This document shows positions 18,381-42,237 of a stretch of DNA of 64,000 nt, in pieces. Source of the stretch: Xanthobacteraceae bacterium. GTDB lineage: Bacteria; Pseudomonadota; Alphaproteobacteria; Rhizobiales; Xanthobacteraceae. The notes under the pieces were generated by a model that searched no databases, was not told where the DNA came from, and saw nothing but the letters and a program-made list of their open reading frames with translations. Position 1 is the first letter of the stretch. The number at the start of each line of letters is the position of its first letter. The stretch lies in NCBI GenBank assembly GCA_049647485.1, contig JBARXT010000197.1, forward strand, positions 184-64,183. Direction: 5' to 3'. The translations under genes and the position numbers were made by a program.

Positions 18381-18392
18381 GAAACAGGTTTC
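18381..18392. promoter_or_regulatory. GAAAC-AG-GTTTC palindrome upstream of the TetR gene (candidate autoregulatory / dehydrogenase-operon operator)
   Basis: It lies in the divergent region between the ACAD (start 18241) and the TetR gene (start 18460). Its form matches the G/CAAAC-N2-4-GTTTG/C type reported for the fatty-acid-responsive TetR regulator PsrA. Confidence 0.4.
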
Positions 18393-18459
18393 TGGCCTAA
18401 AGTTGACAGAACATCCGCTCTTTCAGTCCGACCACTTCCATACCGAGAAGCCGCAAAAC

Positions 18460-20269: not shown

Positions 20270-20288
20270 CGGGAGCCCTTTCACAAAT

Positions 20289-20304
20289 TCTAACATCTGT
20301 TAGA
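20289..20304. promoter_or_regulatory. Palindromic operator copy 1: TCTAACA-TC-TGTTAGA
   Basis: It lies in the divergent region between the hydratase (start 20269) and the SDR (start 20364). It is an A/T-rich perfect inverted repeat in GC-rich DNA. Confidence 0.7.
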
Positions 20305-23313: not shown

Positions 23314-23331
23314 TTCTAACAATTGTTAGAA
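23314..23331. promoter_or_regulatory. Palindromic operator copy 2: TTCTAACA-AT-TGTTAGAA (18-bp perfect palindrome)
   Basis: It lies in the divergent region between fadH (start 23285) and the acyl-CoA dehydrogenase (start 23356). Confidence 0.7.
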
Positions 23332-23355: not shown

Positions 23356-24546
23356 ATGAGGACGCCGGTGGACACCACGCTGAACGAACAGCAGGAAGCC
23401 TTCCGCGAGGCCGCAATGCGCTTTGCTACCGAGAAGCTGGCGCCGCAGTACCAGAAGCGCGCCACCGAACATCGGCTCGACCGCACGATGCTCCACGAGA
23501 TGGGCTCGCTCGGCCTGATCGGCGTCGATATTCCGGAAGCCTATGGCGGGCTTGGCGAGAGCAGCGTCACCGCAGGCGTCATCATCGAGCAGATCGCCTA
23601 TGCCGACTTCAACGCCAGCTACGTGCAACTGCTGGCCTCGCTGATGGGTGGCATGGTCGCGCAGCACGCGACGCCCGACGTGGCGAAGGAATGGCTGCCG
23701 AAGGTGACGCGGGGAGACGCCATCATCGGTCTCGGCCTCACTGAGCCACGCGGCGGGTCTGACGCCGCCAATCTCATTCTTCGTGCGGAGAAATCCGGCA
23801 ACGGATACCGCCTCAACGGCGAAAAGACCTCGATGAGCTGCGCCGACCAATGCGACGCCGCGGTGATCTTCGCCCGCACCGGCAAGGTAGAGGACGGCGC
23901 GCGCGGCGTCAGCGCATTCTTCGTCGATCTCAACCAGAAGGGCATCACCCGCACTCATTTCGACGACATCGGCACCAAGCCGGTCGGGCGCGGCTCGGTG
24001 TTCTTCGACGACGTGTTTGTGCCGGCCGAATGCCTGATGGCGGAGGAAAACAAAGGCTTTTCCAAAATCATGACCGGCTTCGATTACAGCCGCGCCTTGA
24101 TCGGCCTCGAATGCATCGGTCCGGCACAGGCGTCGGTGGACGAAGCCTGGCAGTACAGCCGCGAGCGCACCGCGTTCGAGCGGCCGATCGCCCAGTTCCA
24201 GGGAGTCAGTTTTCCATTGGCGGAAGCCGAGACACAACTCACCATGATGCGCCAGCTTTGCTTCCACACCCTGTCGCTGCGCGACCGCCGCCTGCCGCAC
24301 ACCGCCGAGGCCGCGATGTGCAAGTGGTACGTGCCGAAGACGACGTGCGAGATCATCCACCAGTGCCTGCTGACGCACGGGCATTATGGCTATACCACCG
24401 ATCTGCCGTTCCATCAGCGCTATCTCGACGTGATGGGGCTACAGATTGGTGACGGCACCGCGCAGATCCAGAAGCTGGTGATCGCGCGTGAAAAGGTCGG
24501 TCGCGTTGCGGTACAGTACGCCAAGCAGGATGCGGGGAAAGTATAA
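23356..24546 (+). CDS. Acyl-CoA dehydrogenase
   Basis: 396 aa. LTEPRGGSDA and LLTHGHYGYT...YLDVMGLQIGDGTAQI are present. Confidence 0.9.
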   Translation: MRTPVDTTLNEQQEAFREAAMRFATEKLAPQYQKRATEHRLDRTMLHEMGSLGLIGVDIPEAYGGLGESSVTAGVIIEQIAYADFNASYVQLLASLMGGMVAQHATPDVAKEWLPKVTRGDAIIGLGLTEPRGGSDAANLILRAEKSGNGYRLNGEKTSMSCADQCDAAVIFARTGKVEDGARGVSAFFVDLNQKGITRTHFDDIGTKPVGRGSVFFDDVFVPAECLMAEENKGFSKIMTGFDYSRALIGLECIGPAQASVDEAWQYSRERTAFERPIAQFQGVSFPLAEAETQLTMMRQLCFHTLSLRDRRLPHTAEAAMCKWYVPKTTCEIIHQCLLTHGHYGYTTDLPFHQRYLDVMGLQIGDGTAQIQKLVIAREKVGRVAVQYAKQDAGKV

Positions 24547-24721: not shown

Positions 24722-25411
24722 CTACCTGTCCGGTGCGAATTCGACCGGCGCGGCTTCCGCCGCCGAGGCGCCCTTCTCCCACAGCTTGGGATAGGTCACG
24801 CGAAAATCCTTCAGCAACTGATCGATCGGCGGATCGACGAACCAGCCGCGATCGTTGACATATTCCATGTGCCGCCGGTTCTGGGTATCGAACTCGTGGA
24901 ACAGCGCGTCGCCCTTGCCGTCGAACACCAGTTCGCGGACGCCGAAGCGCTGACACAGTTCGGAGTTGAAGGCCGGCGTCACCTTGAACATCTTGCCGTC
25001 GAGCCACAGCGCGACATAACCGTGATAGATGAACAGGTCCGTTCCCATCAGATCGGCCAGCTTCGCCGAGTTGAGATGATTGCGCACATCGGCGAATCCC
25101 GGTGCCGCCGGAATGCTGGCGGCGCGCAGTACTGCGGCAAGCAGGATCGCCTTCGGCACGCAGTAGTTCGAGGGTCGCTGCGCCACCGTGCTGGCGCGGT
25201 AATCGTGCGGCGTGGTGCCGACATGGAACGGATCGTATTTGATGCGGTCGCGCACGGCGTCGAACAGGCGGATCGCCTTGTCGGTCGGCGACGCGTTTTC
25301 GAAACCGCTCAACGCCGAGGCAGCGAAGTCGCGCACCGGCGCAGAACCACTATCGACGAAGGCCGTCGGCTTGAGGAAATCGGCAGAGGGAGAAGCAGTC
25401 ACGTCAACCAT
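24722..25411 (-). CDS. Transglutaminase-like (papain-fold Cys-His-Asp) superfamily protein
   Basis: From ORF 24722..25609, trimmed to MVDVTASPS at 25411. The candidate catalytic Cys is in SNYCVPKAILLAA and the candidate His is in LFIYHGYVALW. Confidence 0.65.
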   Translation of the reverse strand: MVDVTASPSADFLKPTAFVDSGSAPVRDFAASALSGFENASPTDKAIRLFDAVRDRIKYDPFHVGTTPHDYRASTVAQRPSNYCVPKAILLAAVLRAASIPAAPGFADVRNHLNSAKLADLMGTDLFIYHGYVALWLDGKMFKVTPAFNSELCQRFGVRELVFDGKGDALFHEFDTQNRRHMEYVNDRGWFVDPPIDQLLKDFRVTYPKLWEKGASAAEAAPVEFAPDR

Positions 25412-25435: not shown

Positions 25436-25451
25436 TCTAACAAATGTTAGA
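25436..25451. promoter_or_regulatory. Palindromic operator copy 3: TCTAACA-AA-TGTTAGA
   Basis: It lies in the divergent region between the transglutaminase-like gene (start 25411) and the ACS-like synthetase (start 25527). Confidence 0.7.
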
Positions 25452-25526: not shown

Positions 25527-27491
25527 ATGAGCGACGCCAACCAATACGTTTGGGAACCCTCCCCCGACCTCGTTGCGCAAAGCAATCTGACGGCATTCCT
25601 GCGCGCCACCGACCACGCGGACTACGACAGTCTTGCGGCCACCGCAGAGGCCGATCCGGCATGGCTGATGGAGCAGGTATTCAAATTCTGCGCCGTTCGA
25701 TTCTTTAAGCCTTACGACACGATGCTGGATATCTCGCGCGGCGAACCGTGGGCGCGCTGGTGCGCCGGCGGTACCACCAACATCGTACTGAACTGCATCG
25801 ACAAGCATCGCGACACGCCGGTATGGGACCAGACCTTTCTGGTGTGGGAGGGCGAAAACAAGACGGAGCAGCGCACACTCAGCTACCGCGAGCTTGATCG
25901 CGAGGTCAGCTGCCTGGCACAGGGCTTGCGCGATCTCGGCATCGAGCAGGGCGACGTGGTCGCCCTCTACATGCCGAACCTGCCGGAAACCTTCACCGCA
26001 TTCTTCGCGGTCATGAAGCTCGGCGCGATCCTGCTACCGCTGTTCTCGGGCTTCGGTCCCGCCCCGATCGTCTCCCGCCTCAACCACGGCGAGGCGAAAG
26101 CCGTAATCACTGCCAACGGCACTTGGCGGCGCGGCACGCCAGCCCCTTTGAAGTCCGTACTCGATGCCGCGCTGGAACAGGCGCCGAGCGTACGGCATGT
26201 GATCGTGGTCGATCGCGGCGGATTGTCCATCGAGACGCCGATGCGCGCCGGCCGCGACCATTGGTGGGATGACCTCACGGCGGGCAAAAACGGCGACATC
26301 GCAACCGTTGAGATGCCGGCCGATGCGCCCGCTATCCTGCTCTATACGTCGGGCACCACCGGCGAACCGAAGGGCTGCGTGTGGACCCAGATAGGCTTCA
26401 TTGGCTCGATGGTGACGCGCGACATCATCATCTGCTGCGACTTCAAGCCGACAGACCGCTTCTTCTTTATGAGCGACATGGGCTGGATGGTCGGCGCGAT
26501 GACCGCCTGCATCCCGAGCTTCGCCGGCGCCAGCCTGTTGGTGGCCGAAGGCACGCCGGATTATCCGGACACCGGACGGTTCTGGAGGCTGATCCAGGAT
26601 CATCGCGTCAGTTATCTCGGCGTTTCGCCCACCATCGTTCGCAGCCTTATGCGCTACGGTGAGGAAGTTGAGAACTACGATCTCTCCGGTTTGCGCATCA
26701 CCACCTCCGGCGGCGAGGCATGGACCGCCGCGCCGTGGCAATGGTTCTTCGAGCACGTCTGCAAGCGACGGTTGCCGATCATCAACATTTCCGGCGGTAC
26801 CGAAGTCGGCGGCTGCATATTTCTCGGCACGCCGAACCACCCGATGAATCCCGGCTCGTTTTCACGGCCGGCGCTCGGCGTTGGCGCCGATATCGTCGAT
26901 CTCTCGGGCAACAAGGTGCCGCCCGGCGAAGTGGGCGAACTGATCCTGCGCCATTCTTCCATCGGTCTGACGAAAAGCCTGTGGAAGGCGGACGCACGCT
27001 ACATCGACAATTACTGGAACACGCTGCCCGGCATCTGGGTGCACGGCGACTTCGCCATGCAGGGCACCGATGGGCTCTACTACATTCTCGGCCGTTCCGA
27101 TGACACCATCAAGATTTCCGGCAAGCGCACCGGCCCCGCCGAACTCGAGGGCCTATTGGTCGCCACCGGCAAGGTGGCGGAGGCCGCAGTGTTCGGCATC
27201 CCGCATCCGGTGAAGGGATCGGCCATCGTCTGCGCCTGCGTGCTGATGCCGAGTGTTACGGAACAAGGCATCGCCGAAGAATTATCAAGTGCACTGGTGA
27301 AAGGCATGGGCGCGTCCTATCGCCCCGAGCGCATCGTCTTCGTCGATGACTTGCCGCGCACCCGCAACCTGAAGATCATGCGCCGTGTGCTGCGCGCGGT
27401 GTTCGAGAACAAGGACCCGGGTGACCTGTCGTCGCTCGCCAATCCTGAGACGGTGGACGCGCTGCGCAGGCAGGTGGCGGCGTCACCCTGA
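25527..27491 (+). CDS. AMP-forming acyl-CoA synthetase, long acetyl-/acetoacetyl-CoA synthetase-like form
   Basis: From ORF 25461..27491, with the start at MSDANQYVW (25527). It has an ACS-type N-terminal extension, YTSGTTGEPKG, the WMVG block, ISGGTE, and GRSDDTIKISGKR. Confidence 0.85.
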   Translation: MSDANQYVWEPSPDLVAQSNLTAFLRATDHADYDSLAATAEADPAWLMEQVFKFCAVRFFKPYDTMLDISRGEPWARWCAGGTTNIVLNCIDKHRDTPVWDQTFLVWEGENKTEQRTLSYRELDREVSCLAQGLRDLGIEQGDVVALYMPNLPETFTAFFAVMKLGAILLPLFSGFGPAPIVSRLNHGEAKAVITANGTWRRGTPAPLKSVLDAALEQAPSVRHVIVVDRGGLSIETPMRAGRDHWWDDLTAGKNGDIATVEMPADAPAILLYTSGTTGEPKGCVWTQIGFIGSMVTRDIIICCDFKPTDRFFFMSDMGWMVGAMTACIPSFAGASLLVAEGTPDYPDTGRFWRLIQDHRVSYLGVSPTIVRSLMRYGEEVENYDLSGLRITTSGGEAWTAAPWQWFFEHVCKRRLPIINISGGTEVGGCIFLGTPNHPMNPGSFSRPALGVGADIVDLSGNKVPPGEVGELILRHSSIGLTKSLWKADARYIDNYWNTLPGIWVHGDFAMQGTDGLYYILGRSDDTIKISGKRTGPAELEGLLVATGKVAEAAVFGIPHPVKGSAIVCACVLMPSVTEQGIAEELSSALVKGMGASYRPERIVFVDDLPRTRNLKIMRRVLRAVFENKDPGDLSSLANPETVDALRRQVAASP

Positions 27492-27592: not shown

Positions 27593-27607
27593 TTCTTCTG
27601 CGCTTTC

Positions 27608-28420
27608 CTAAATCGGGCACTCCGGCGGGAACGAGGGTTTGCGCTTCTCGAGATGCGAGGCCAGCCCCTCACGCGCCTCAAGCCCGGTAAAGCCGAGGAT
27701 TTCCAGCGCCGTCGACGTATCGAAGAGCGGCCCGTTCACGCGCAGCCAGTTATTGAGCGAATACTTGGTCCAGCGGATCGCGCTCTGCGCGCCGGTGGCG
27801 AGATCTTCCGCGGTTTCCAGCGCGATCTTCTGCAACTCGGCATCCTCGACGCACAACGACACCAGCCCGATGCGCTCGGCTTCCTCACCCGACAGCGGCT
27901 TGCAGGTCAGCAGATAATATTTCGCCTTGGCCAGCCCGCACAGCAGTGGCCAGATGATGCAGGCGACGTCGCCTGCCGCCACCCCGAGCCGCGTATGGCC
28001 GTCGACGATCTTGGCGGATTTGCCGCAGATCGACACGTCCGCGAGAATGCCGACGACCAGCCCGGCGCCCACCGCGACGCCGTTGATGGCGGAAATGATC
28101 GGCTTGTTGCAGTTGATGACGTTGTAAACAAGATCCTTGGCTTCCTTCCAGGTCGACATGCGCGCGACCGGATTGTCGAGAATGCTCTTGATCAGTTCGA
28201 AATCCCCGCCGGCGGAAAACGCCTTGCCCGCACCGGTCACGATCACCGCATTGATATCCGGATCGTCGTTGATGTCGCGCCAGATGTGCGTAAGTTGGGT
28301 ATGCGTCTCCGCATCCACCGAATTGTATGTTTCCGGCCGATCGAAGGTGATCCGAAGAATCCGCTTCGAAGGATAGTCAAGCTTCAACTTGGTATAGGCA
28401 GCATAGCGGTCCGACATCAT
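27608..28420 (-). CDS. Enoyl-CoA hydratase/isomerase
   Basis: 270 aa. [26 protein letters not shown] and [12 protein letters not shown] are present. Confidence 0.9.
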
Positions 28421-28532: not shown

Positions 28533-28548
28533 TCGAACAGATGTTAGA
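28533..28548. promoter_or_regulatory. Palindromic operator copy 4: TCGAACA-GA-TGTTAGA (one mismatch)
   Basis: It lies in the divergent region between the hydratase (start 28420) and the synthetase/thiolase-like/DUF35 operon (start 28666). Confidence 0.6.
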
Positions 28549-28665: not shown

Positions 28666-30222
28666 ATGCAAAGCGAGCGACAAGATTCGCCGACGACGAC
28701 CGCCGGCACCAGTTCGACGGTCGGTAGCCTGTTCCGCGCTCGCGCCGCGATCCAGCCGGCCGCGCCTGCCATCGAATATGGCGACAGAGCCGTCAGCTAC
28801 GGCGAACTGAACGACCGGGTGAACCGCGCAAGCGCGTTGCTGGCCGCGCGTGGACTCAAGCGCGGCGACCGTGTCGCATTATTGTCGCGCAACCGCCCGG
28901 AATATCTCGAGATCGAACTCGCGGCCGGACAACTTGGCGTCATCACCGCCTGCCTGAACTGGCGGCTGTCGAAGCGCGAACTGGTCTACTGCATCGAACT
29001 TGTTTCACCCAAACTGCTGATTGCGGAAGCGGAGTTGGTCGCGCCGCTGGACGGCGCGCTCTCGGTCCGCGACGTCGTGACGCTCGGCACGGATTACGAA
29101 AGGGCACTGCAAGCGCAGACCGGCGCACCATCGCCGATCGCGGCAGAGCCGGAAGACGGTCTCGTCATTCTCTACACCAGCGGTACCACTGGCCTGCCAA
29201 AAGGTGCAGTGATCTCGCATCGCGCGATGATGGCGCGCGCACTGGTGTTCTCATCCGAACTCAACATCGCGCACGATGAATCCTTCGTCGCCTGGGCGCC
29301 GTTGTTCCACATGGCTTCGACCGACCACGCGATTGCCACACTGTTGCGCGGCGGCACTGTGATCGTGGTCGACGGCTTCCAGGTCGCGCCGCTACTGTCC
29401 GCCGCCGCGCGCTACCGCATCGGCTGGTTCGTGCTGATCCCCGGCATGGTGGAGGCTCTTGTCGAGGGATTCCGCGCCGATCCCGTCACCGTGAAGGGTA
29501 TCCGCACCTGCGGCGCGATGGCCGACCTGGTGCCGCCGCAGGCCATCGCCGACATCACGCAGCTGTTGCAGGCGCCCTACATCAATAGCTTCGGGTCTAC
29601 CGAGACCGGCCTGCCGCCGGCCAGCACCAACCTCATCGCGATCGGGGACATACCCGCAAGGCTGTCGAAACAGCAAAGCAGTTTCTGCGAGATCAAGCTG
29701 GTCGATCCCGACGACAATGAGGTGGCGATAGGCCAGCCCGGCGAACTCGCCATGCGCGGGCCCACGCTGTTCTCCGGCTACTGGCAGGCGGACGAGACCA
29801 ACGCGCGCGATTTTCGCGGCGGCTGGTTTCACATGGGCGACGTATTTCGCCGCAACTCCGACGGCACGCTCGATTTCGTGGATCGCGCCAAATACATGAT
29901 CAAATCCGGCGGCGAGAACGTCTATCCAGCCGAGATCGAACGCGTGCTGATGACCGATTCCCGCATCACCGAGGCCGCCGTGGTGCGCACCAAGGACGCC
30001 AAATGGGGCGAGGTGCCGGTCGCGTTCATCGCCCGCCGCGACGACAGCCTCACCGAGGCCGAACTGACCGCGATGTGCCGGCGCGATCTCGCCGGCTACA
30101 AATGCCCGCGACAGTTCCATTTCATCGACTTCGCGGACTTCCCACGCTCGACCAGCGGCAAGGTGCAGCGGCACGAGCTTGAGGCGCGGCTGACGCAAAC
30201 CGCTTCCGCTGCCGCAACATAG
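28666..30222 (+). CDS. AMP-dependent acyl-CoA synthetase
   Basis: From ORF 28612..30222, with the start at MQSERQD (28666). YTSGTTGLPKGA, FGSTE, HMGDV, KSGGENVYP and PRSTSGK are present. Confidence 0.85.
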   Translation: MQSERQDSPTTTAGTSSTVGSLFRARAAIQPAAPAIEYGDRAVSYGELNDRVNRASALLAARGLKRGDRVALLSRNRPEYLEIELAAGQLGVITACLNWRLSKRELVYCIELVSPKLLIAEAELVAPLDGALSVRDVVTLGTDYERALQAQTGAPSPIAAEPEDGLVILYTSGTTGLPKGAVISHRAMMARALVFSSELNIAHDESFVAWAPLFHMASTDHAIATLLRGGTVIVVDGFQVAPLLSAAARYRIGWFVLIPGMVEALVEGFRADPVTVKGIRTCGAMADLVPPQAIADITQLLQAPYINSFGSTETGLPPASTNLIAIGDIPARLSKQQSSFCEIKLVDPDDNEVAIGQPGELAMRGPTLFSGYWQADETNARDFRGGWFHMGDVFRRNSDGTLDFVDRAKYMIKSGGENVYPAEIERVLMTDSRITEAAVVRTKDAKWGEVPVAFIARRDDSLTEAELTAMCRRDLAGYKCPRQFHFIDFADFPRSTSGKVQRHELEARLTQTASAAAT

Positions 30223-30230
30223 GAGATTTC

Positions 30231-31436
30231 ATGACCAAGGCTGCGGCCCTCGCCGGCCACAAGAATTCGTTGCGCGGACAGGTCGCCATTGTCGGCATCG
30301 GACTGTCGCCTGTCGGCAAGGTGCCGGGCCGCAGCCCGCTGTGGCTAGCCGCTGCCGCCGCCAAGCAGGCCCTGGCCGATGCGGGCATGCAGAAAAACGA
30401 AATCGACGGCGTGCTGGCGAGCCCGGCGATGGCCGCGCAATTTCATCGCTTCAGCGTCGCCTTCAGCGAATATTTCGGCGTGCAACCGACATTCTCCAAC
30501 ACGTTGCAGGTCTCGGGGGCGACCGCCGCCACCATGTTCAACATCGCGGCGGCGGCCATCCACGGCGGCCTCGCGGAAACCGTGCTGGTGGTCGGCGGCG
30601 ACAGTCTGCTCTCAGGTCTTACGCCGGAACTGGCGCTACGCTCGCTCACCGAAAGCCGCGACCAGCAATACGAAATGCCATTCGGCATTCCGGTCGCCAA
30701 CACCTTCGCGATGACCGCACATCGGCACATGAAGGAATTCGGCACCACCCCGGAGCAACTGGCACAGGTGGCGGTGACGCAGCGCCAGCACGCCGCGCGC
30801 ACCCCCGGCGCGCAGCAGACCGCGCCGATCACCGTCGAGGACGTACTCAATTCGAAGATGGTGACGACGCCCTATCATAAGCTCGACTGTTCGCTGATTT
30901 CCGACGGCGGCGCGGCGTTCGTGCTGACGTCAGCCGAACGCGCGAAAGCGCTCGGCATCGAAAATCCGATCTACATTCTCGGCGGCGGCGAATGCTACAC
31001 CCACGAGCACATCTTCCTGATGCCTTCGCTCACCACCACCGGCGCGGTGCAATCGAGCCGGAAGGCCTATGCGATGGCAGGCTATGGCCCGAAGGACATG
31101 CACACCGCCGGCGTCTATGACTGCTTTACCGGCACCGTCATCATGATGCTGGAAGATCTCGGCTTCTGTCCCAAGGGAGAAGGCGGCCGTTTTGTCTCTG
31201 ATGGTCAGATGACATACGGTGGACAGATTCCCTCCAACACCCATGGCGGGCTGTTGTCGTTCGCACATTCCGGCATTCCCGGCTCGCTGTTCCATTTCCA
31301 TGAAGTCGTCGCGCAACTGCGCGGCGAATGCGGCGATCGGCAGGTCGCGGGCGCCGAACTCGGGCTGATCCACAGCCTCGGCGCCGGATTCGCCACCAAC
31401 GCCACCACCATTCTCGGCACGGAGAACACGTTGTGA
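30231..31436 (+). CDS. Thiolase-fold protein of the SCP-x / lipid-transfer type, apparently lacking the nucleophilic Cys
   Basis: 401 aa. Thiolase-like blocks are present: KLDCSLISDGGAAFVL, YDCFTG, LGFCPKGEGG and NTHGGLLS. There is no Cys in the first 218 residues or so; the usual N-x-C-x-S/T-G region reads LQVSGATAA. Confidence 0.8.
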   Translation: MTKAAALAGHKNSLRGQVAIVGIGLSPVGKVPGRSPLWLAAAAAKQALADAGMQKNEIDGVLASPAMAAQFHRFSVAFSEYFGVQPTFSNTLQVSGATAATMFNIAAAAIHGGLAETVLVVGGDSLLSGLTPELALRSLTESRDQQYEMPFGIPVANTFAMTAHRHMKEFGTTPEQLAQVAVTQRQHAARTPGAQQTAPITVEDVLNSKMVTTPYHKLDCSLISDGGAAFVLTSAERAKALGIENPIYILGGGECYTHEHIFLMPSLTTTGAVQSSRKAYAMAGYGPKDMHTAGVYDCFTGTVIMMLEDLGFCPKGEGGRFVSDGQMTYGGQIPSNTHGGLLSFAHSGIPGSLFHFHEVVAQLRGECGDRQVAGAELGLIHSLGAGFATNATTILGTENTL

Positions 31437-31852
31437 TCTCGCTAGAAGACGCCGCCCGCAAGCCGCTCCCCTCACCCGATGCCGATACCGCCACGCTGTG
31501 GTGCGGCCTGCGCGACGGCCAATTGCTGCTCCAGCACTGCGACGATTGCGGCAACGTGCAGTTCTATCAGCAAGGTTTTTGCCGCCATTGCAGCGGCGAG
31601 AACCTGACGCATCGACCGGCCAGCGGGCGCGGCAAGGTGCATTCCTTCAGCGTCGTCCACCGCGCGCCCGGCCCTGCCTTCAAGAATGACGTGCCCTATG
31701 CCGTGCTGCTGGTGGAACTGGCCGAAGGCCCGCGGATGATTTCAACCTATACCGGCGGCGAGCCGGACGAGGTGAGGTTCGACATGGACGTCGTGCTGGT
31801 CTGCGAACCGGTGTCCGGCGACATCGCCCTGCCCCGTTTCAGGCGGGCCTGA
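31433..31852 (+). CDS. DUF35 protein (rubredoxin-like Zn ribbon plus OB fold), partner of the thiolase-like protein
   Basis: This is the tail of ORF 31328..31852. The GTG at 31433 overlaps the upstream TGA (GTGA). The Cys4 ribbon reads HCDDCGNVQFYQQGFCRHCSG and is followed by an OB-like segment, KVHSFSVVH. Confidence 0.8.
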   Translation: MISLEDAARKPLPSPDADTATLWCGLRDGQLLLQHCDDCGNVQFYQQGFCRHCSGENLTHRPASGRGKVHSFSVVHRAPGPAFKNDVPYAVLLVELAEGPRMISTYTGGEPDEVRFDMDVVLVCEPVSGDIALPRFRRA

Positions 31853-31902: not shown

Positions 31903-31918
31903 TCTAACAGTTGTTAGA
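31903..31918. promoter_or_regulatory. Palindromic operator copy 5: TCTAACA-GT-TGTTAGA
   Basis: It lies upstream of the dehydrogenase/carboxylase operon (ATG 31991) and is the first of a tandem pair spaced 18 bp centre to centre. Confidence 0.7.
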
Positions 31919-31920
31919 TT

Positions 31921-31936
31921 TTGAACACCTGTTAGA
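31921..31936. promoter_or_regulatory. Palindromic operator copy 6: TTGAACA-CC-TGTTAGA (degenerate left arm)
   Basis: It is the second of the tandem pair and lies 55 bp upstream of the ATG at 31991. Confidence 0.55.
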
Positions 31937-31990: not shown

Positions 31991-33154
31991 ATGGATTTCG
32001 ACCTCACCACCGAACAGCAGCAAATCCTCGATTACGGCAACAGCGTTGCCAGGCAATACGACCGCCGCTACTGGCTCGATTGCGCGGAGAAACGCGAATT
32101 TCCCGTCGCGCTCTATCGGAAGGTGGCGTTGGACGGCTTCGTCGGCATGATGGTGCCGGAACAATATGGCGGCGCCGGTCAGGGCATGACCGAGATGCAC
32201 CTGTTCCTCGAGGGGCTCTCCAACAACGGCATTCCGCTGTTAAATCTCGTGGTCGGCGCCACCATGAGCCTCGGCCTGATCGCCAAATACGGCACCGAGG
32301 CGCAGAAACAGCGTTTCCTGCCCGACGCCTGCGCCGGCAAGACCCGTTTTTGCTTCGCCATCACCGAGCCCGATGCCGGCACCAACTCGATGCGCATCAC
32401 CACGCTGGCGAAGCGCAACGGCAATCGTTTCTCGCTGAACGGCCAAAAGACCTTCATCACCGACGCCGACGGCTCCGACTACGTACTGGTGGTGGCACGC
32501 ACCATTCCGCATACCGAAGTGAAGCGGAAGACCGACGGTTTCACGCTGTTCATTGTCGACCTCAAGGCCAAGGGCGTCAGCAAGCAATACATTCCGGTCA
32601 GCATTCCCGCGCCGGAAACCCAGTGGCAACTGTTCTTCGACGATGTCGATCTCGGGCCGGAAGACGCCATCGGCGAGATCGATCGCGGCTTCGAAATCCT
32701 GTTCAAGAGCCTCAACCCGGAGCGCATTCTGGTCGGATCGATCTGCTGCGGGCTCGGCCGCTACGCGCTCAATCGCGCAGTCGCGTATGCCAGCGAACGC
32801 AAGGTGTTCAACAATACGCCGATCGGCGCCTATCAGGGCCTGCAACACCCACTCGCCAGCGCTTATACCGACGTCGAAATGGCTTCGCTGATGACGCTGA
32901 AGGCCGCGTGGGTGTTCGATCAAGGCCGCGAGGCTGGCGAATTCTCCAACATGGCGAAACTCGCCGCCGCCGATGCCGGCACCAAGGCGGTGGACACCGC
33001 ACTGCAATGCTTCGGCGGCAACGGCTTCACCAAGGAATACGGCATCTTCGACATCTATCCGCTGGTACGGCTGCTGAAGACCGCGCCCCTCAACCGCGAA
33101 ATGCTTCTCAACTACATCGGTGAGCGCGTCATGGGCTTGCCACGCAGCTATTAG
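31991..33154 (+). CDS. Acyl-CoA dehydrogenase
   Basis: From ORF 31937..33154, with the start at MDFDLTTEQ (31991). ITEPDAGTNS, KTFITDA and QCFGGNGFT are present. Confidence 0.9.
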   Translation: MDFDLTTEQQQILDYGNSVARQYDRRYWLDCAEKREFPVALYRKVALDGFVGMMVPEQYGGAGQGMTEMHLFLEGLSNNGIPLLNLVVGATMSLGLIAKYGTEAQKQRFLPDACAGKTRFCFAITEPDAGTNSMRITTLAKRNGNRFSLNGQKTFITDADGSDYVLVVARTIPHTEVKRKTDGFTLFIVDLKAKGVSKQYIPVSIPAPETQWQLFFDDVDLGPEDAIGEIDRGFEILFKSLNPERILVGSICCGLGRYALNRAVAYASERKVFNNTPIGAYQGLQHPLASAYTDVEMASLMTLKAAWVFDQGREAGEFSNMAKLAAADAGTKAVDTALQCFGGNGFTKEYGIFDIYPLVRLLKTAPLNREMLLNYIGERVMGLPRSY

Positions 33155-33166: not shown

Positions 33167-34774
33167 ATGGCTGTGATGAAATCCGACATCTCGACGACAA
33201 GCGACGAATATCGCCGCAACCACGAGGTCTATCGCGAGCGCATCGGCGATCTGCATCGGCGGCGTGCTGCCGCTATGCTGGGCGGGCCGGAGCGGGCCCG
33301 AAAGCTGCACAAGGAACGCAAGCAACTGTTGCCGCGCGAGCGCATCGCCGCGCTGATGGACCCCGGCTCGCCATTCCTCGAGTTCAGTCAGTTGGCCGGC
33401 GAAGGCATGTATGAGGGCGTGCCGCCCGGCGGCAGCATCATCACCGGCGTCGGCATCGTCTCCGGCCGCCCGTGCATGATCATTGCCAACGACGCCACCG
33501 TGAAAGGCGGCACCTATTACGGCATCACCTGCAAGAAGCACGTCCGCGCCCAGCACTTCGCCTGGAAGCATCGCCTGCCCTGCATCACCCTGGTGCAATC
33601 CGGCGGCGCCAACCTGCCCGAGCAGCCGAGCATCTTTCCGGATGAGGGTCAGTTCGGCTCGATTTTCTACAACCAGATCCGCATGTCCGGCGAAGGCATC
33701 CCGCAGATCGCCATTGTGCACGGCCCCTCCACCGCCGGCGGCGCGTATATGCCGGCGCTGTGCGACGAAACCGTGATCGTGCGCAATCAGGGCGCGATGT
33801 TTCTCGGCGGACCGCAGCTCGTCTATGCCGCGACCAAGGAAGAAGTCGGCGTCGAGGCACTGGGCGGCGGCGAGATGCACAGCCGCATCAGCGGCGTCAC
33901 CGATCATCTGGCGGAGAACGACAGCCACGCCATCGCCATCACCCGCGATATCGTGGCGAACCTCGGCGACATCCCGCAGCAACGCTGGCAGGTGGCCAAA
34001 CCACGACCGCCGCGCTTCGACCCGAACGAAATCTACGGTCTCGTCAGTGCCGACCCGCGCATTCCCACCAACAGCCGCGATATCATCGCGCGGCTGGTGG
34101 ATGGCAGCGAGTTTCACGAATTCAAGCCGCTCTACGGTGACACGCTGATCACCGGCTTCGCCCGCATCATGGGTTTCGAGATCGGCATTCTCTGCAACAA
34201 TGGCGTGCTGTTCTCCGAAAGCGCGCTGAAGGCGACGCATTTCATCGACCTGTGCTGCAAGCGCGGCATTCCACTGCTGTTCATGGCGGACGTCACCGGC
34301 TTCATGGTCGGCCGCGAAGCCGAAGAAGGCGGCATCTCCAAGCATGGCGCCAAGATGATCACCGCCATGGCCAGCGCCGACGTGCCGAAATACACGCTGA
34401 TCATCGGCAATTCTTACGGCGCCGGCTACATGTCGATGTGCGGCCGCCCGATGAAGCCCAACGCCATGATGATGTGGCCGAACGGCCGCTCCGCGATCAT
34501 GGGGCCGGATCAAGCAGCCAACACCCTCGCCATGGTCAAGGACGAAGCCCACAAGCGCGAAGGTACGAGTTGGACCGAAGTGGAACGCGAAGCCTATCGC
34601 GCGCCGGTGCGCCAGCAGTTCGAGGATTTCGCCAGTGCTTATAACTTCGCGCGCAATATCTGGTGCGACATGGTGATCGACCCGATCGAAACCCGCAACG
34701 TGATGGCGCTCCTGCTCGATCTGGCCGGCCGAACGCCGCCAAAAGACACGCGCGTCGGCGTGCTTCGGATGTGA
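33167..34774 (+). CDS. Acyl-CoA carboxylase carboxyltransferase (beta) subunit, canonical methylcrotonyl-/geranyl-CoA carboxylase type
   Basis: 535 aa. LLPRERIAALMDPGSPFLEFSQLAG, ANDATVKGGTYYGITCKKHVRAQ and PSTAGGAYMPA closely match MCC-beta as I recall it. Confidence 0.9.
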   Translation: MAVMKSDISTTSDEYRRNHEVYRERIGDLHRRRAAAMLGGPERARKLHKERKQLLPRERIAALMDPGSPFLEFSQLAGEGMYEGVPPGGSIITGVGIVSGRPCMIIANDATVKGGTYYGITCKKHVRAQHFAWKHRLPCITLVQSGGANLPEQPSIFPDEGQFGSIFYNQIRMSGEGIPQIAIVHGPSTAGGAYMPALCDETVIVRNQGAMFLGGPQLVYAATKEEVGVEALGGGEMHSRISGVTDHLAENDSHAIAITRDIVANLGDIPQQRWQVAKPRPPRFDPNEIYGLVSADPRIPTNSRDIIARLVDGSEFHEFKPLYGDTLITGFARIMGFEIGILCNNGVLFSESALKATHFIDLCCKRGIPLLFMADVTGFMVGREAEEGGISKHGAKMITAMASADVPKYTLIIGNSYGAGYMSMCGRPMKPNAMMMWPNGRSAIMGPDQAANTLAMVKDEAHKREGTSWTEVEREAYRAPVRQQFEDFASAYNFARNIWCDMVIDPIETRNVMALLLDLAGRTPPKDTRVGVLRM

Positions 34775-34790: not shown

Positions 34791-36788
34791 GTGTTCGACA
34801 AAATCCTGATCGCCAATCGCGGCGAAATCGCCTGCCGGATCGCCCGCACCTGCCGGCGGCTCGGCGTCGCCGTCGCCGGCGTCCACTCCTCCGCCGACGC
34901 CGATGCGCTGCACGTGAAGGAGATCGGGGAGTCCATCGCCATCGGCGAGGCAGCCGCCGCCGACAGTTATCTGCGGATCGACGCGGTGATCGACGCAGCG
35001 AAAGCGACCGGCGCGCAGGCGATCCATCCCGGCTTCGGTTTCCTTGCCGAGAACGCGGCGTTCGCTCGCGCGGTGGAGGCCGCCGGCCTCGTCTTCATAG
35101 GCCCGACGCCGAACGTGATCGAGCGGCTCGGCGACAAGGCAATGGCCAAGCAGGAAGCGGACGCCGCCGGCGTGCCGATCATTCCGGGCAGCACCACACC
35201 AAGCGAGGACAAGGCCGAAGTCGAGCGGATCGTGCGCGAGATCGGCCTGCCGGTGATGCTGAAGGCTGCGGCCGGCGGCGGCGGCAAGGGCATGCGCGTC
35301 GTCTCCACGCTCAATGGCCTCGCCGACGACATCGAATCCGCGATGCGCGAAGCTAGGAATGCCTTCGGCTCGGCCGGTCTGATCGTCGAGAAACTGATTC
35401 CGCACGGCCGCCACATCGAAATCCAGATTCTCGGCGACGGCAAAGGAAACGTCATCCATCTGTTCGAGCGCGAATGCACCTTGCAGCGCCGGCATCAGAA
35501 GGTGATCGAGGAAGCGCCGGCGGCGAACCTGCCGGCGGCGCTGCGCGATCGCATGGCAACGGACGCGGTGCGGCTTGGCAAGCGGTTGAACTATCGCGGC
35601 GCCGGCACCGTCGAATTCATCCTGCAGGACGACGCCTATTATTTCCTCGAGGTGAATCCGCGCTTGCAGGTCGAGCATCCGGTGACCGAGGGCATCACCG
35701 GCCTCGACATCGTCGAACTGATGCTGCGCATCGCCTCCGGCGAGGGCCTGCCGCTGAAGCAGGAACAGATCGCTTGCCGCGGTCACGCCGTGGAGGCGCG
35801 TATCTGCGCCGAAGATCCTGCCGACAACTTCCTGCCAAGCACCGGTGACATCGTTCACGTCGGCTTCCCGGCTGGCGATATTCGCATTGAGACCGGTGTG
35901 GAAAGCGGCTCTGTCGTCACGCCCTATTACGATTCGATGCTGGCAAAGCTGATCGCCTTCGCGCCAACCCGCAACGAGGCGCTGGACAAGCTGCGCGGAG
36001 CTGTAGACGCAACCTCCATCTTCGGCGTCACCACCAATCAAGTGTTCCTTGGCGGCCTGCTCGATTGGAAGGCAACGCGCGAGGCGACATTCCACACCCG
36101 ATCGATCGACGAGAATATCGACCAACTCACCGCGATGTCCTCGGACGTGGACCACGAGGCGCTCGCGCTCGGCGCCTGCTTCTGGATGATACGCCAGCGC
36201 GAGGCGGCGACGCGCGATCCATGGCTATCTCGCGATTTGACCGGCTGGCACATGGCGGCGGGCGACGCCGGCCTGTCGCCTATACCGGAACTGCATCTGA
36301 CCACGGCGAACCATAGCGCCGAAATTCGCTTCGCACCCGTGCAGCACGATGGCACGATGACCATCGGCGTCAACGACAATCAAGTGACGGTGCGGCTTGT
36401 TCCGGTCGGCGACGATCGTTTCAGCACCACTCTCGGTGCGCGCCGCGAAATCGTCCGCATCCATCAGGAGCAGAACGCCATTTTCGTCCACGACGGGCGC
36501 GGGGTTCACGCGATGCAGGCGCTGCCCTACCTCAGCTATATCAGTGCGACGGCCGAGACCAGCGGTGATCTGCGTGCGCCGATGACCGGCATGATCCTCA
36601 AGGTCAACGTCGCCGTCGGCGATAAAGTCCATACCGGCGACGTCGCGGCAGTGCTGGAATCGATGAAGATGGAATTGCGGATCGCGAGCGAGGTGGATGG
36701 CGTCGTTACCGCGGTCAACTGCCGTGCCGGTGAAACCGTCGAGCGTAACGCCGTCGTCGTGGTGGTCGAGCCGGAGCCAACATCATAG
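34791..36788 (+). CDS. Acyl-CoA carboxylase alpha subunit (biotin carboxylase plus BCCP)
   Basis: 665 aa. KILIANRGEIACRI and ATP-grasp motifs are present. The C-terminal biotinyl motif reads LESMKMEL (Lys626 codon at 36666-36668). Confidence 0.9.
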   Translation: MFDKILIANRGEIACRIARTCRRLGVAVAGVHSSADADALHVKEIGESIAIGEAAAADSYLRIDAVIDAAKATGAQAIHPGFGFLAENAAFARAVEAAGLVFIGPTPNVIERLGDKAMAKQEADAAGVPIIPGSTTPSEDKAEVERIVREIGLPVMLKAAAGGGGKGMRVVSTLNGLADDIESAMREARNAFGSAGLIVEKLIPHGRHIEIQILGDGKGNVIHLFERECTLQRRHQKVIEEAPAANLPAALRDRMATDAVRLGKRLNYRGAGTVEFILQDDAYYFLEVNPRLQVEHPVTEGITGLDIVELMLRIASGEGLPLKQEQIACRGHAVEARICAEDPADNFLPSTGDIVHVGFPAGDIRIETGVESGSVVTPYYDSMLAKLIAFAPTRNEALDKLRGAVDATSIFGVTTNQVFLGGLLDWKATREATFHTRSIDENIDQLTAMSSDVDHEALALGACFWMIRQREAATRDPWLSRDLTGWHMAAGDAGLSPIPELHLTTANHSAEIRFAPVQHDGTMTIGVNDNQVTVRLVPVGDDRFSTTLGARREIVRIHQEQNAIFVHDGRGVHAMQALPYLSYISATAETSGDLRAPMTGMILKVNVAVGDKVHTGDVAAVLESMKMELRIASEVDGVVTAVNCRAGETVERNAVVVVVEPEPTS

Positions 36789-36827
36789 TTGCGGCGTCGA
36801 CGACGCGAAGCAAACAGGGAGCACGTC

Positions 36828-41342: not shown

Positions 41343-41345
41343 ACC

Positions 41346-42233: not shown

Positions 42234-42237
42234 CATC

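Follow-up and report, generated by a model that had tools for sequence, protein, structure and literature searches.

A cysteine-less thiolase-fold protein and its DUF35 partner as a candidate retro-aldolase in an MCC-type carboxylase regulon of a Xanthobacteraceae bacterium

P0002 is a thiolase-fold protein that lacks the thiolase nucleophile and probably acts as a retro-aldolase. The most informative part of its context is an adjacent MCC-type carboxylase that is not accompanied by an HMG-CoA lyase, a link absent from an earlier, sequence-only reading of this DNA. By analogy with known systems, P0002 and the DUF35 protein encoded behind it may form a CoA-independent β-hydroxyacyl-CoA retro-aldolase of the Sal/Ltp2 kind that serves as a stand-in for HMG-CoA lyase; this complete reading has an even chance of being right. 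That the pair replaces HMG-CoA lyase for a 3-hydroxy-3-alkylglutaryl-CoA, its predicted substrate, is put forward tentatively. The sequence-only reading had favoured a retro-aldolase over a thiolase. Every element of it that could be checked held, and the aldol chemistry is what we infer from them.

Gene organisation and regulon

The window, i.e. the whole stretch of DNA analysed, covers 64,000 nucleotides (Table 1). An AMP-forming ligase gene, P0002 and the DUF35 gene follow each other in this order on the + strand. The tight linkage noted before was found as described: the ligase gene ends at 30222 and the P0002 ATG lies at 30231, leaving an 8-nt gap with a GGAGA ribosome-binding site, while the P0002 stop codon TGA (31434-31436) overlaps the GTG start of the DUF35 gene at 31433 (GTGA). 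For the ligase, start 28612 is less favoured than 28666, which is preceded by a GGAGGA site at a distance of 7 nt. The DUF35 protein is built of a Cys4 zinc ribbon and an OB fold, and its gene comes after the P0002 orthologue (THL) in essentially all related loci. The trio ligase has orthologues in 44 of 48 alphaproteobacterial loci and, with 55% identity, in Noviherbaspirillum.

Table 1 Features of the P0002 locus
Feature	Position	Strand	Assignment or remark
TetR-family regulator, start codon uncertain	18301..19212	+	Pfam TetR_N + TetR_C_24
Crotonase ECH19484 (EchA19-like)	19484..20296	-	Pfam ECH_1; NCBIfam EchA19-like 170 bits
Operator copy 1, TCTAACATCTGTTAGA	20289..20304	.	ECH19484 / SDR divergent region
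SDR (2,4-dienoyl-CoA-reductase-like / PRK07576)	20364..21221	+	
FadH/OYE-type flavoenzyme (enoate or dienoyl-CoA reductase family)	21225..23285	-	Pfam Oxidored_FMN + Pyr_redox_2
Operator copy 2, TCTAACAATTGTTAGA	23315..23330	.	OYE / ACAD divergent region
Acyl-CoA dehydrogenase, cyclohexanecarboxyl-CoA-dehydrogenase-like	23356..24546	+	TIGR03207 544.7 bits vs cut-off 575
Transglutaminase-like protein, start placed downstream of operator	24722..25411	-	Pfam Transglut_core
Operator copy 3, TCTAACAAATGTTAGA	25436..25451	.	
ACS-family ligase, enlarged acyl pocket	25527..27491	+	Pfam ACAS_N + AMP-binding
Crotonase ECH27608 (PRK07327 family)	27608..28420	-	NCBIfam PRK07327 415 bits, cut-off 292
Operator copy 4, TCGAACAGATGTTAGA	28533..28548	.	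ECH27608 / ligase divergent region
AMP-forming acyl-CoA ligase, trio gene 1	28666..30222	+	Pfam AMP-binding + AMP-binding_C
P0002, Cys-less SCP2-thiolase-fold protein, predicted retro-aldolase	30231..31436	+	Gly96, Tyr296-Asp-Cys298-Phe, His346; Pfam Thiolase_C_1 + weak Thiolase_N
Stand-alone DUF35 protein, predicted structural partner of P0002	31433..31852	+	Pfam zf-ChsH2 + OB_ChsH2_C
Operator copies 5 and 6, TCTAACAGTTGTTAGA and weaker TTGAACACCTGTTAGA	31903..31936	.	Upstream of carboxylase operon
Acyl-CoA dehydrogenase, ATG 31991	31991..33154	+	Pfam ACAD domains
Carboxyltransferase beta subunit CTb, MCC type	33167..34774	+	PDB scores
Biotin carboxylase/BCCP alpha subunit BCa	34791..36788	+	MCC-type BT domain
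Crotonase ECH36789, start perhaps ~39 nt downstream	36789..37589	+	Pfam ECH_1
Alpha/beta hydrolase	37599..38453	+	Not core: 8/48 related loci

A palindrome, TCTAACA-N2-TGTTAGA, marks the regulon that includes the trio as well as three crotonases, the ACS-like ligase and the MCC-type carboxylase. Five copies with at most one mismatch and one weaker copy were found in the 3.9-Mb genome, all in promoter regions of the P0002 locus and none elsewhere, at a chance expectation of 0.02. The TetR-family regulator is likely to repress the regulon; in Noviherbaspirillum and in loci of Bradyrhizobium its gene likewise neighbours the orthologue of ECH19484. Hydratases had been placed in the regulon before, and indeed the operator of the trio is common to the crotonase genes. 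An obvious 3-hydroxyacyl-CoA dehydrogenase had been noted as lacking there; no 3HCDH-type (FadB-type) enzyme is encoded on this contig, and the SDR is a member of the regulon.

The ACS-like ligase is the commonest partner of the P0002 pair (46/48 alphaproteobacterial and 11/17 other loci). It scores under the cut-offs for acetate, propionate and acetoacetate ligases and has Gly at the position of Trp414 of S. enterica Acs (alignment to 2P2B). Among the hydratases, ECH19484 has the widest linkage to the pair, its gene adjoining THL-DUF35 in alpha, beta and 'delta' loci, and ECH27608 was found in 47 of the 48 alpha loci. A 319-aa + strand ORF (27518-28477) in the stretch that separates the ACS-like gene from the ligase gene was rejected as spurious, the real gene being ECH27608 on the minus strand. 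The transglutaminase-like gene is kept in alpha loci and recurs with 46% identity in beta CTb loci. In Betaproteobacteria a FadH/OYE orthologue (58-60% identity) adjoins CTb-like carboxylases. ATG 31991 was preferred as start of the second acyl-CoA dehydrogenase because TTG 31937 abuts the operator.

Active site and relatives of P0002

A protein without Cys in its first ~218 residues had been described, with LQVSGATAA where thiolases carry the acyl-accepting Cys. The first Cys is residue 220, residues 1-219 having none, and the others are at 255, 298, 313 and 367; all quoted motif blocks were located (LQVSGATAA at 92, DCSLISDGG at 219, YDCF at 296, LGFCPKGEGG at 310 and NTHGG at 336). A HMMER alignment with the true thiolase 7YVY puts AACASGG over QVSGATA of P0002, so that the nucleophilic Cys falls on Gly96. 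A mis-registered Cys had been considered; the alignment revealed no such error. Gly96, Tyr296, Asp297, Cys298, Phe299 and His346 are invariant in 120 clusters of P0002 orthologues, and among distant representatives the nucleophile position is Gly in 120 of 133. The YDCF motif aligns with Y302-D-C304-Y of CtSal (HMMER alignment); it is the thiolase HDCF with His changed to Tyr, and the His of the thiolase 'GHP' motif is kept as His346. The expectation of Tyr-type catalytic residues was thus borne out for Tyr296, which forms part of a Sal-type Tyr296/Cys298 dyad, but not for a Tyr/Tyr arrangement as in Ltp2. Across the wider clade the position of Cys298 is often Ala, Ser or Pro, which leaves the identity of the catalytic acid uncertain and counts against the lead reading.

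The best solved relatives of P0002 are all Cys-less: 4U4E (E 3.5e-78), CtSal (1.9e-60) and TcLtp2 (1e-51). True thiolases rank below them (7YVY 1.8e-45, BbsB 1.3e-40, SCP2-thiolase 1.5e-38). In a phylogenetic tree P0002 groups with 4U4E in a 67-leaf clade outside both the Sal and the Ltp2 clades, a placement that counts against the lead reading. Pairing with a DUF35 protein of the kind known from side-chain aldolases had been suggested as well, and the best PDB matches of the partner are the DUF35 partners of CtSal (CtShy, 2.2e-18) and Ltp2 (ChsH2, 1.4e-17).

Linkage to an MCC-type carboxylase

CTb is a paralogue of canonical MCC beta subunits (52-55% identity), with PDB scores of 633 bits for AccD1, 594 for human MCCB and 583 for P. 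aeruginosa MCC, against 429 for GCC. The window encodes both subunits of the MCC-type carboxylase and a crotonase but no HMGL-type lyase. The genome has a single HMG-CoA lyase, on another contig beside a different carboxylase in a canonical liu cluster, and no HMGL homologue was present in the 80 related loci examined. Of 48 related alphaproteobacterial loci, 47 have THL-DUF35 directly next to CTb. Among 121 genomes sampled in the family, the 4 with a THL orthologue are also the 4 with a CTb orthologue; among 151 genomes of one betaproteobacterial family the two again coincide, in 2 genomes, where they are 42-49 kb apart. This co-occurrence may in part be due to the transfer of one catabolic island as a unit, and it comes from related genomes, which are non-independent samples. 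Extensimonas and Polaromonas have a single operon CTb(73-74%)-BCa-ECH-ECH19484 without an HMGL gene. This closes a triangle of linkages: CTb with ECH19484 in these two genera, ECH19484 with THL-DUF35 in other lineages, and THL-DUF35 with CTb in Bradyrhizobiaceae. A second carboxylase type (65-66% identity), present in Ottowia and Extensimonas, comes with an HMGL-like gene of its own.

Other observations count against the lead reading. In Ottowia a CTb-like carboxylase is followed by an HMGL-like gene. ECH36789, closest to short-chain enoyl-CoA hydratases in a PDB search, and ECH19484 are neither of them especially close to known methylglutaconyl-CoA hydratases. Furthermore, three genomes harbour THL orthologues (77-83% identity) and ECH19484 with an MCC of canonical level only or none; THL neighbours there are a CoA-transferase, an SDR and acyl-CoA dehydrogenases. 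The aldolase is therefore not always dependent on this carboxylase.

These three minimal acyl-CoA dehydrogenase/THL-DUF35/ECH19484 modules fit an alternative with the same retro-aldolase chemistry, which we regard as unlikely although it is the strongest competitor. A β-branched or alicyclic acyl-CoA would be converted by acyl-CoA dehydrogenase and ECH19484 into a tertiary 3-hydroxyacyl-CoA and cleaved into acetyl-CoA and a ketone, the carboxylase serving another pathway step. An example of the type is 1-hydroxycyclohexylacetyl-CoA lyase (EC 4.1.3.35), to our knowledge a gene-orphan. The separate THL and carboxylase operons of Betaproteobacteria, the EchA19-like character of ECH19484 and the presence in the regulon of a cyclohexanecarboxyl-CoA-dehydrogenase-like enzyme (545 bits) with a FadH/OYE reductase speak for it. 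However, it leaves unexplained why the pair abuts a carboxylase where an HMGL-type lyase is missing, why ECH19484 lies within the carboxylase operon of Comamonadaceae and why the ACS-like ligase is so constant, and the regulon showed no enzyme for handling ketones (BVMO, ketone carboxylase).

Proposed reaction and pathway

With Gly96 in the place of the thiolase nucleophile no acyl-enzyme would be possible. By analogy with CtSal, Tyr296 would take the proton from the β-hydroxyl, after which the Cα-Cβ bond would be cleaved; Cys298 would protonate the acetyl-CoA enolate, with His346 possibly helping or replacing it. The Cys4 zinc-ribbon/OB protein is expected to bind P0002 and shape the substrate cleft. 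The pair would take the HMG-CoA lyase role in a TetR-controlled route resembling the Liu/Atu pathways. A branched acid would be activated by the trio ligase and desaturated where needed, carboxylated at the γ-methyl by the MCC-type carboxylase and hydrated by a crotonase, for which ECH19484 is the best-linked candidate. The resulting tertiary 3-hydroxy-3-alkylglutaryl-CoA would be split by the P0002 pair into acetyl-CoA and a free β-keto acid, the latter possibly being re-activated by the ACS-like ligase with its enlarged pocket.

It seems improbable that P0002 is no aldolase at all but a decarboxylase, or a non-catalytic subunit serving as scaffold or for substrate binding. SLP of T. brucei has the YDCF motif and shows only slow malonyl-CoA decarboxylation (PMC12329534), and the variation at Cys298 in the wider clade would suit such a role. 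CtSal, however, is without malonyl-CoA decarboxylase activity, and its authors proposed SLP to be an aldolase (PMC12329534). The strict invariance of Gly96, Tyr296, Cys298 and His346, with proteins from different classes still 77-84% identical, points to an active enzyme under constraint. A second thiolase-fold subunit is not adjacent, and a decarboxylase next to an ATP-consuming carboxylase would be futile.

Aldolases being reversible, the pair could also condense a ketone with acetyl-CoA to a tertiary 3-hydroxyacyl-CoA. Dehydration of this product, its carboxylation by the MCC-type carboxylase and a final cleavage would then allow ketone assimilation. The regulon has the enzymes needed, with two crotonases, one of them as dehydratase, besides the MCC-type carboxylase, and the genome encodes a canonical HMG-CoA lyase at another site. 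Nevertheless, this is very improbable: the equilibrium is unfavourable, two acid-CoA ligases and an ABC importer indicate an acid substrate, and no precedent is known. A genuine thiolase with a mis-registered or alternative nucleophile is hardly credible, for although the nearest NCBIfam model bears the name acetyl-CoA acetyltransferase (PRK06158; 371 bits, below the cut-off of 421) and P0002 keeps the thiolase His (His346) and acid/base Cys (Cys298), the Cys-free N-terminal part, the Gly shared with most relatives and the His-to-Tyr change already contradict it.

Comparison with known systems

CtSal of Comamonas testosteroni (PDB 9MYR) is a bile-acid side-chain aldolase with CtShy(DUF35) as partner; its catalytic dyad is Tyr302/Cys304, and Y302F and C304A/S/H abolish activity (PMC12329534). 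It aligns with P0002 over the full length and likewise has the SCP2-thiolase fold, Gly at the nucleophile site and a DUF35 partner, with YDCY for YDCF. Against the lead reading, Gln161, Gln347 and Gln352 of CtSal are Ala156, Leu341 and His346 in P0002. CtSal falls in a different clade, and its DUF35 partner forms the C-terminal part of a MaoC hydratase and has a C3H1 ribbon, whereas that of P0002 is free-standing with a Cys4 ribbon. The hydratases here are crotonases in a carboxylase regulon instead of a MaoC enzyme among steroid genes.

TcLtp2-ChsH2(DUF35) (PDB 6OK1), a steroid C3 side-chain aldolase, shares with P0002 the Cys-less fold, the Gly, the DUF35 partner and the Tyr of YDxF, but belongs to another clade. 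It cleaves a tertiary 3-hydroxyacyl-CoA, of steroid nature, into a ketone and an acyl-CoA. Ltp2 uses Tyr294 and Tyr344 (YDHF ... Y), where P0002 has Cys298 and His346. PDB 4U4E, deposited as 'thiolase', is the closest solved relative and lies in the clade of P0002; Gly occupies its nucleophile position, and its pattern YDSF ... His has Ser in place of Cys298.

IpfD/IpfE/IpfF of ibuprofen catabolism and BbsAB show the same arrangement, in which a ligase is combined with an SCP-x-like protein and a free-standing DUF35 protein. The resemblance to BbsAB, the benzoylsuccinyl-CoA thiolase (PDB 7PXP), had been pointed out before. BbsB aligns only to residues 147-388 of P0002 (1.3e-40; BbsA with the DUF35 protein 6.1e-07) and has the thiolase-type HDAF instead of YDCF. 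As BbsB is a true Cys thiolase according to the literature, the likeness is architectural only.

HMG-CoA lyase (LiuE, HMGL family) of the Liu/Atu pathways is a TIM-barrel enzyme, in contrast to the thiolase fold with DUF35 seen here. Rv2498c of mycobacteria, a CitE-type lyase with a fold unlike that of P0002, catalyses the same reaction as proposed here. The reaction proposed for the P0002 pair, 3-hydroxy-3-alkylglutaryl-CoA to acetyl-CoA and a β-keto acid, is that of LiuE, and the pair occupies the genomic position of LiuE, next to genes for a hydratase and for both MCC-type subunits, beta and alpha.

Organization of the ligase, thiolase-fold and DUF35 genes

The genes for an AMP-forming ligase, a thiolase-fold protein (gene THL, protein P0002) and a DUF35 protein are tightly linked, as had been claimed in the sequence-only reading. 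The ligase ORF ends at 30222 and is separated from the ATG of THL at 30231 by an 8-nt spacer containing GGAGA, while the GTG start of the DUF35 gene at 31433 overlaps the TGA stop of THL (31434-31436). The ATG at 28666 is the preferred ligase start, because GGAGGA lies directly upstream. Pfam analysis assigned AMP-binding and AMP-binding_C domains to the ligase and Thiolase_C_1 (179 bits) and, weakly, Thiolase_N (34 bits) to P0002, which has a length of 401 amino acids. The DUF35 protein (139 amino acids) consists of a zf-ChsH2 domain with a Cys4 ribbon (CDDC...CRHC) and an OB_ChsH2_C (OB) domain. Its best matches in the PDB were the DUF35 domains of CtShy (2.2e-18) and ChsH2 (1.4e-17), followed by an archaeal thiolase/HMGCS scaffold and BbsA. 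The DUF35 gene is translationally coupled to THL and was kept in all related loci that reach far enough; its product is the predicted partner of P0002, with which it would form a complex.

A long ORF of 319 amino acids between the ACS-like gene and the ligase gene is an artefact that stems from high G+C content. This spurious ORF had no match in Pfam, NCBIfam or the PDB, and the conserved gene opposite to it encodes a PRK07327-type crotonase (415 bits). The crotonase gene is divergent from the ligase gene, with the fourth operator copy in between.

Positions of the genes, operons and operator copies discussed in the text
Feature	Position	Strand	Description
Second operon	5279-13972	-	BKACE, ligases, carboxylase, crotonase
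Second carboxylase	7676-11292		within second operon
AraC-type regulator	14242-15546		
TetR gene	18301-19212		
ECH19484	19484-20296	-	crotonase
OYE	21225-23285	-	FadH/OYE reductase
ACAD23356	23356-24546	+	cyclohexanecarboxyl-CoA-dehydrogenase-like
Transglutaminase-like gene	24722-25411		papain-fold protein
ACS-like ligase	25527-27491	+	
Spurious ORF	27518-28477	+	
ECH27608	27608-28420	-	crotonase
Ligase	28666-30222	+	AMP-forming
THL	30231-31436	+	thiolase-fold protein P0002
DUF35 gene	31433-31852	+	
CTb	33167-34774	+	MCC-type carboxyltransferase beta
BCa	34791-36788	+	biotin carboxylase/BCCP alpha
ECH36789	36789-37589	+	crotonase
Liv-type ABC importer	38600-45462		with embedded ligase gene
Operator copies	20289, 23315, 25436, 28533, 31903		palindrome
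Weaker operator copy	31921		

Loss of the thiolase nucleophile in P0002

P0002 was compared with the sequences of solved structures, using residue-level alignments. The best PDB match was 4U4E, a 'thiolase' without described function (E 3.5e-78), followed by the Cys-less steroid side-chain aldolases CtSal (9MYR, E 1.9e-60) and TcLtp2 (6OK1, E 1e-51), an archaeal thiolase (7YVY, E 1.8e-45), BbsB (7PXP, E 1.3e-40), SCP2-thiolase (6HSJ, E 1.5e-38) and another archaeal thiolase (6ESQ, E 1.7e-37). All motifs quoted in the sequence-only reading were found in P0002, and the N-terminal stretch of about 218 residues is indeed free of Cys: the cysteines are residues 220, 255, 298, 313 and 367. The nucleophilic Cys of thiolases (N-terminal CxS motif) is not present in residues 1-219 as aligned to 7YVY, in which the nucleophile motif AACASGG lies over QVSGATA of P0002 and its Cys over Gly96. 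Gly occupies this position also in 4U4E, CtSal and TcLtp2, the three top matches. Gly96 is invariant in 120 orthologue clusters (at least 80 % identity), and among 133 full-length representatives of 35-52 % identity the position is Gly in 120 and Cys in one. The alignment and the Gly in orthologues and relatives therefore argue against a mis-registered Cys. In the HDCF/HDAF motif of thiolases the His is replaced by Tyr296 in P0002, while the Cys of the motif (Cys298) and the His of the 'GHP' loop (His346) are kept. An AlphaFold2 model of P0002, with an input of 22 sequences that were all at least 80 % identical, was unusable (pLDDT 40, pTM 0.34).

CtSal depends on both the Tyr and the Cys of its YDCY motif (Tyr302 and Cys304): mutants Y302F and C304A/S/H are inactive. 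The substrate hydroxyl is hydrogen-bonded by the Gly at the former nucleophile position (2025 study, PMC12329534). The catalytic pair of Ltp2 is another one, consisting of Tyr294 (in YDHF) and Tyr344, and SLP of T. brucei, which has YDCF, is suspected by the CtSal authors to be an aldolase (PMC12329534). Gly96, Tyr296 and Cys298 of P0002 align with Gly89, Tyr302 and Cys304 of CtSal; Y296-D-C298-F thus represents the Sal-type dyad and is the same YDCF as in T. brucei SLP. Each of the three residues is invariant across the 120 orthologues. However, Gln161, Gln347 and Gln352 of CtSal are replaced by Ala156, Leu341 and His346 in P0002 (numbering from the 9MYR alignment); in CtSal, Gln347 and Gln352 serve to stabilise the thiolate and Gln161 belongs to the oxyanion hole. 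P0002 differs from Ltp2 in having YDCF instead of YDHF, and Tyr344 of Ltp2 aligns with His346, the conserved His of the thiolase 'GHP' loop. The signature of Gly, YDCF and His is invariant among orthologues and the commonest one among relatives. Because many members of the clade have Ala, Ser or Pro at the position of Cys298, the acid in P0002 may be either Cys298 or His346.

In a FastTree phylogeny of the 133 representatives, four PDB sequences and two paralogues, rooted on 7YVY, P0002 fell into a clade of 27 leaves (support 0.91), itself nested in one of 67 leaves (0.94). The latter includes 4U4E and the two paralogues from the same genome, with CtSal and TcLtp2 outside. The kinship to Ltp2/DUF35-type enzymes that had been suggested for P0002 stands as far as the Cys loss and Tyr296 are concerned; the second Tyr of Ltp2 is lacking and P0002 lies outside the Ltp2 and Sal clades. 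Carrying a Sal-type dyad yet falling outside both clades, P0002 is therefore Sal/Ltp2-like by sequence logic and belongs to neither family. On these sequence criteria it represents a large, uncharacterised sister clade of Sal/Ltp2, and is itself strictly conserved. Thousands of members of this sister clade are annotated as 'acetyl-CoA acetyltransferase'.

The genome encodes at least two more Cys-less thiolase-like proteins with adjacent DUF35 genes, with Gly at the nucleophile site and the motifs YDSF and YDAF; a third thiolase-like gene, on contig C162, likewise has an adjacent DUF35 match (contigs C157, C291 and C162; loci L013-L015). Such pairs are common in bacteria of this kind.

A carboxylase operon without an HMGL-type lyase

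THL and the DUF35 gene lie directly upstream of a carboxylase operon. Against MCC-type structures CTb scored 583-633 bits, compared with 429 bits for geranyl-CoA carboxylase (GCC), ruling out a GCC-like identity, and the alpha subunit carries an MCC BT domain. MCC-type beta and alpha subunits and an enoyl-CoA hydratase are thus present within one operon, as in Liu/Atu-type systems. An HMGL-family lyase (LiuE) was not found in the window, nor an HMGL homologue in the 80 related loci. The one true HMG-CoA lyase of the genome is encoded on contig C255 (423 bits on PRK05692), beside another biotin carboxylase and carboxyltransferase. Similarly, five other carriers harbour a canonical MCC (52-53 % identity to CTb) adjoining an HMGL gene elsewhere in the genome. 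With canonical MCC and HMGL elsewhere, here and in 5/5 other carriers tested, the CTb operon was rejected as the only Liu pathway of the organism, and is therefore a paralogous Liu/Atu-like system without lyase. Comparison with the PDB did not single out methylglutaconyl-CoA hydratase for ECH36789 or ECH19484, neither being notably close.

A second carboxylase operon, likewise without an HMGL-type lyase, is apparently under control of a separate AraC-type regulator. It starts with BKACE (DUF849; beta-keto-acid cleavage enzyme) and further contains a ligase, a divergent MCC/GCC-type carboxyltransferase, a biotin carboxylase, a crotonase and a second ligase. Its carboxyltransferase is 43 % identical to CTb, and its carboxylase is the more divergent of the two. 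The presence of BKACE suggests that free beta-keto acids occur as intermediates here.

Regulon

The palindrome TCTAACA-N2-TGTTAGA occurs five times, with a weaker sixth copy, against a chance expectation of 0.02; all copies are in promoter regions, and it was found nowhere else in the 3.9-Mb assembly (at most 1 mismatch). The operator ties together the units ECH19484/SDR, FadH/OYE reductase/ACAD23356 (545 bits), transglutaminase-like protein/ACS-like ligase, ECH27608/ligase-THL-DUF35 and the operon ACAD-CTbeta-BCalpha-crotonase-hydrolase. The regulon comprises about 15 genes, with a single type of operator and one TetR protein as the likely regulator, and the substrate of the regulon may be a branched or alicyclic acid. 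A 3HCDH-type dehydrogenase was not found on the contig, in line with the earlier remark that no obvious 3-hydroxyacyl-CoA dehydrogenase is present.

The ACS-like ligase did not reach the model cut-offs for acetate, propionate and acetoacetate ligases. Where Acs of S. enterica has Trp414, a residue that closes the acyl pocket, this ligase has Gly; a larger acyl pocket is therefore predicted. The Liv-type ABC importer, probably the uptake system of the pathway, has an embedded gene for a 655-amino-acid AMP-forming ligase, which is kept at 72-98 % identity beside the cluster in Bradyrhizobiaceae and Noviherbaspirillum. The transglutaminase-like protein, unexpected company for acyl-CoA enzymes, is a conserved regulon member in Alphaproteobacteria, and a relative (46 % identity) adjoins a CTb-like carboxylase in Betaproteobacteria (L103, 13875-14471; L104, 4265-4867).

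Conservation and linkage across genomes

Eighty related loci from Alpha- and Betaproteobacteria and other MAGs were fetched, with THL at 77-97 % identity. Of the 48 loci from Alphaproteobacteria that span 15 kb or more, THL was present in all 48, DUF35, ECH27608 and CTb each in 47, the ACS-like ligase in 46, BCa in 45 and the ligase in 44. The compact order in Bradyrhizobium is TetR, ECH19484(-), ACS, ECH27608(-), ligase, THL, DUF35, CTb, BCa, ECH; the core order in Comamonadaceae is ACS(-), nitroreductase, ligase(s), THL, DUF35, and in Noviherbaspirillum ligase, ACS, THL, DUF35, ECH19484(-), ABC importer, TetR. The most constant neighbour of THL-DUF35 across classes is the ACS-like ligase. 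A nitroreductase-family gene (~223-248 amino acids), not found in the window, recurs immediately upstream of ligase-THL-DUF35 in Comamonadaceae, and lies between ligase and THL in Afipia and Bradyrhizobium CCH5-F6-type loci (L098-L101, L072-L073, L080, L090, L093-L097 and Afipia-type loci such as L035). In L084 (7183-9877) a KAS-III-like/DUF35 fusion (491 amino acids) and then a thiolase-fold protein (400 amino acids) are encoded just upstream of the THL orthologue, a set recalling PhlABC or archaeal thiolase/HMGCS/DUF35 assemblies.

With thresholds of E <= 1e-170 for THL and E <= 1e-220 for CTb, orthologues of both genes were found in the same 4 of 121 sampled genomes of the window's family and no others, and in a betaproteobacterial family in the same 2 of 151 genomes, 42-49 kb apart; these counts overstate independence, owing to the relatedness of the genomes and a possible joint transfer of the genes on a single island. 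An order-level sample was uninformative, with only 3 genomes drawn from the window's own family.

CTb, ECH19484 and THL-DUF35 are linked pairwise in different lineages. Extensimonas and Polaromonas carry their closest CTb orthologue (73-74 %) in an operon CTb-BCa-ECH-ECH19484 (ECH19484 at 60-61 %) from which an HMGL gene is absent; in Extensimonas this operon lies ~15 kb from THL-DUF35. ECH19484 directly adjoins THL-DUF35 in several other lineages, and in Bradyrhizobiaceae CTb does so. Ottowia and Extensimonas have a second carboxylase type (65-66 % identity), after which an HMGL-like gene of its own is encoded (36-38 % identity to HMG-CoA lyase), in the company of ACAD23356 and OYE orthologues. 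Loci that encode an HMGL-like lyase have no adjacent aldolase gene, and loci without such a lyase show linkage of the aldolase and its hydratase. Mainly because of this pattern, THL-DUF35 is read as the putative lyase of the carboxylase route and ECH19484 as the hydratase feeding it. The tandem carboxylase sets with the HMGL-like gene in between (L102 of Ottowia, 1106-13347; L107 of Extensimonas, 1105-17193) look like a lyase-containing counterpart of the regulon.

Proposed role of THL-DUF35

P0002-DUF35 is predicted to perform CoA-independent retro-aldol cleavage of a 3-hydroxyacyl-CoA. In the proposed route, the ligase would activate an acid, with an ACAD acting where needed, and the MCC-type enzyme would carboxylate the 3-methyl-2-enoyl-CoA at the gamma position. 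Hydration by a crotonase would give a tertiary 3-hydroxy-3-alkylglutaryl-CoA, to be cleaved by THL-DUF35 into acetyl-CoA and a free beta-keto acid, with Tyr296 as base on the hydroxyl, the Gly96 amide holding the hydroxyl, and Cys298 or His346 protonating the enolate. The beta-keto acid would be re-activated by the ACS-like ligase; a free product of this kind fits the Gly at the Trp414 position of this ligase and the BKACE in the neighbouring operon. We tentatively propose that, in a second Liu/Atu-type route, the place of HMG-CoA lyase is taken by the non-homologous thiolase-fold aldolase, a reading for which the chances appear slightly less than even.

In three MAGs, THL (77-83 % identity), DUF35 and ECH19484 occur with canonical-level MCC only or with none, the neighbours of THL being a family-III CoA-transferase, SDRs and ACADs. 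THL-DUF35 can therefore work without this special carboxylase. The same intermediate might be reached otherwise, e.g. from imported 3-alkylglutarate; alternatively, the true substrate might be a non-carboxylated tertiary hydroxyacyl-CoA. It is very improbable that THL-DUF35 acts as an aldol condensing enzyme, joining a ketone and acetyl-CoA to a tertiary hydroxyacyl-CoA that is dehydrated, gamma-carboxylated by the MCC-type enzyme and split; this would constitute an undescribed ketone-assimilation route needing no ketone carboxylase.

The interest of the lyase-replacement reading lies in the location of THL, in a non-steroid regulon, at the very place where the lyase of an MCC-type carboxylase operon is expected. 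If this reading is borne out, the HMG-CoA-lyase step would have a third non-homologous type of enzyme besides HMGL and CitE, a widespread mis-annotation of the clade would be corrected, and biocatalysis would gain an interesting CoA-ester aldolase for small tertiary alcohols. The regulon makes a compact, testable system.

Comparison with known aldolase systems

Literature searches that paired DUF35 with thiolase-like proteins, with carboxylases or with Bradyrhizobium, and others on cyclohexylacetate and EC 4.1.3.35, turned up nothing on this cluster. A thiolase-fold aldolase with a DUF35 protein is an already known kind of enzyme (Ltp2 and Sal; IpfDE genetically), and to our knowledge such DUF35-partnered retro-aldolases have been characterised for steroid side chains only (Ltp2, Sal). 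For IpfD/IpfE, the comparison covered the gene arrangement, which is similar. In the steroid systems of CtSal and Ltp2 the DUF35 domain is fused to a MaoC hydratase, whereas the DUF35 protein described here is free-standing and belongs, with P0002, to a non-steroid, carboxylase-linked regulon with crotonase hydratases.
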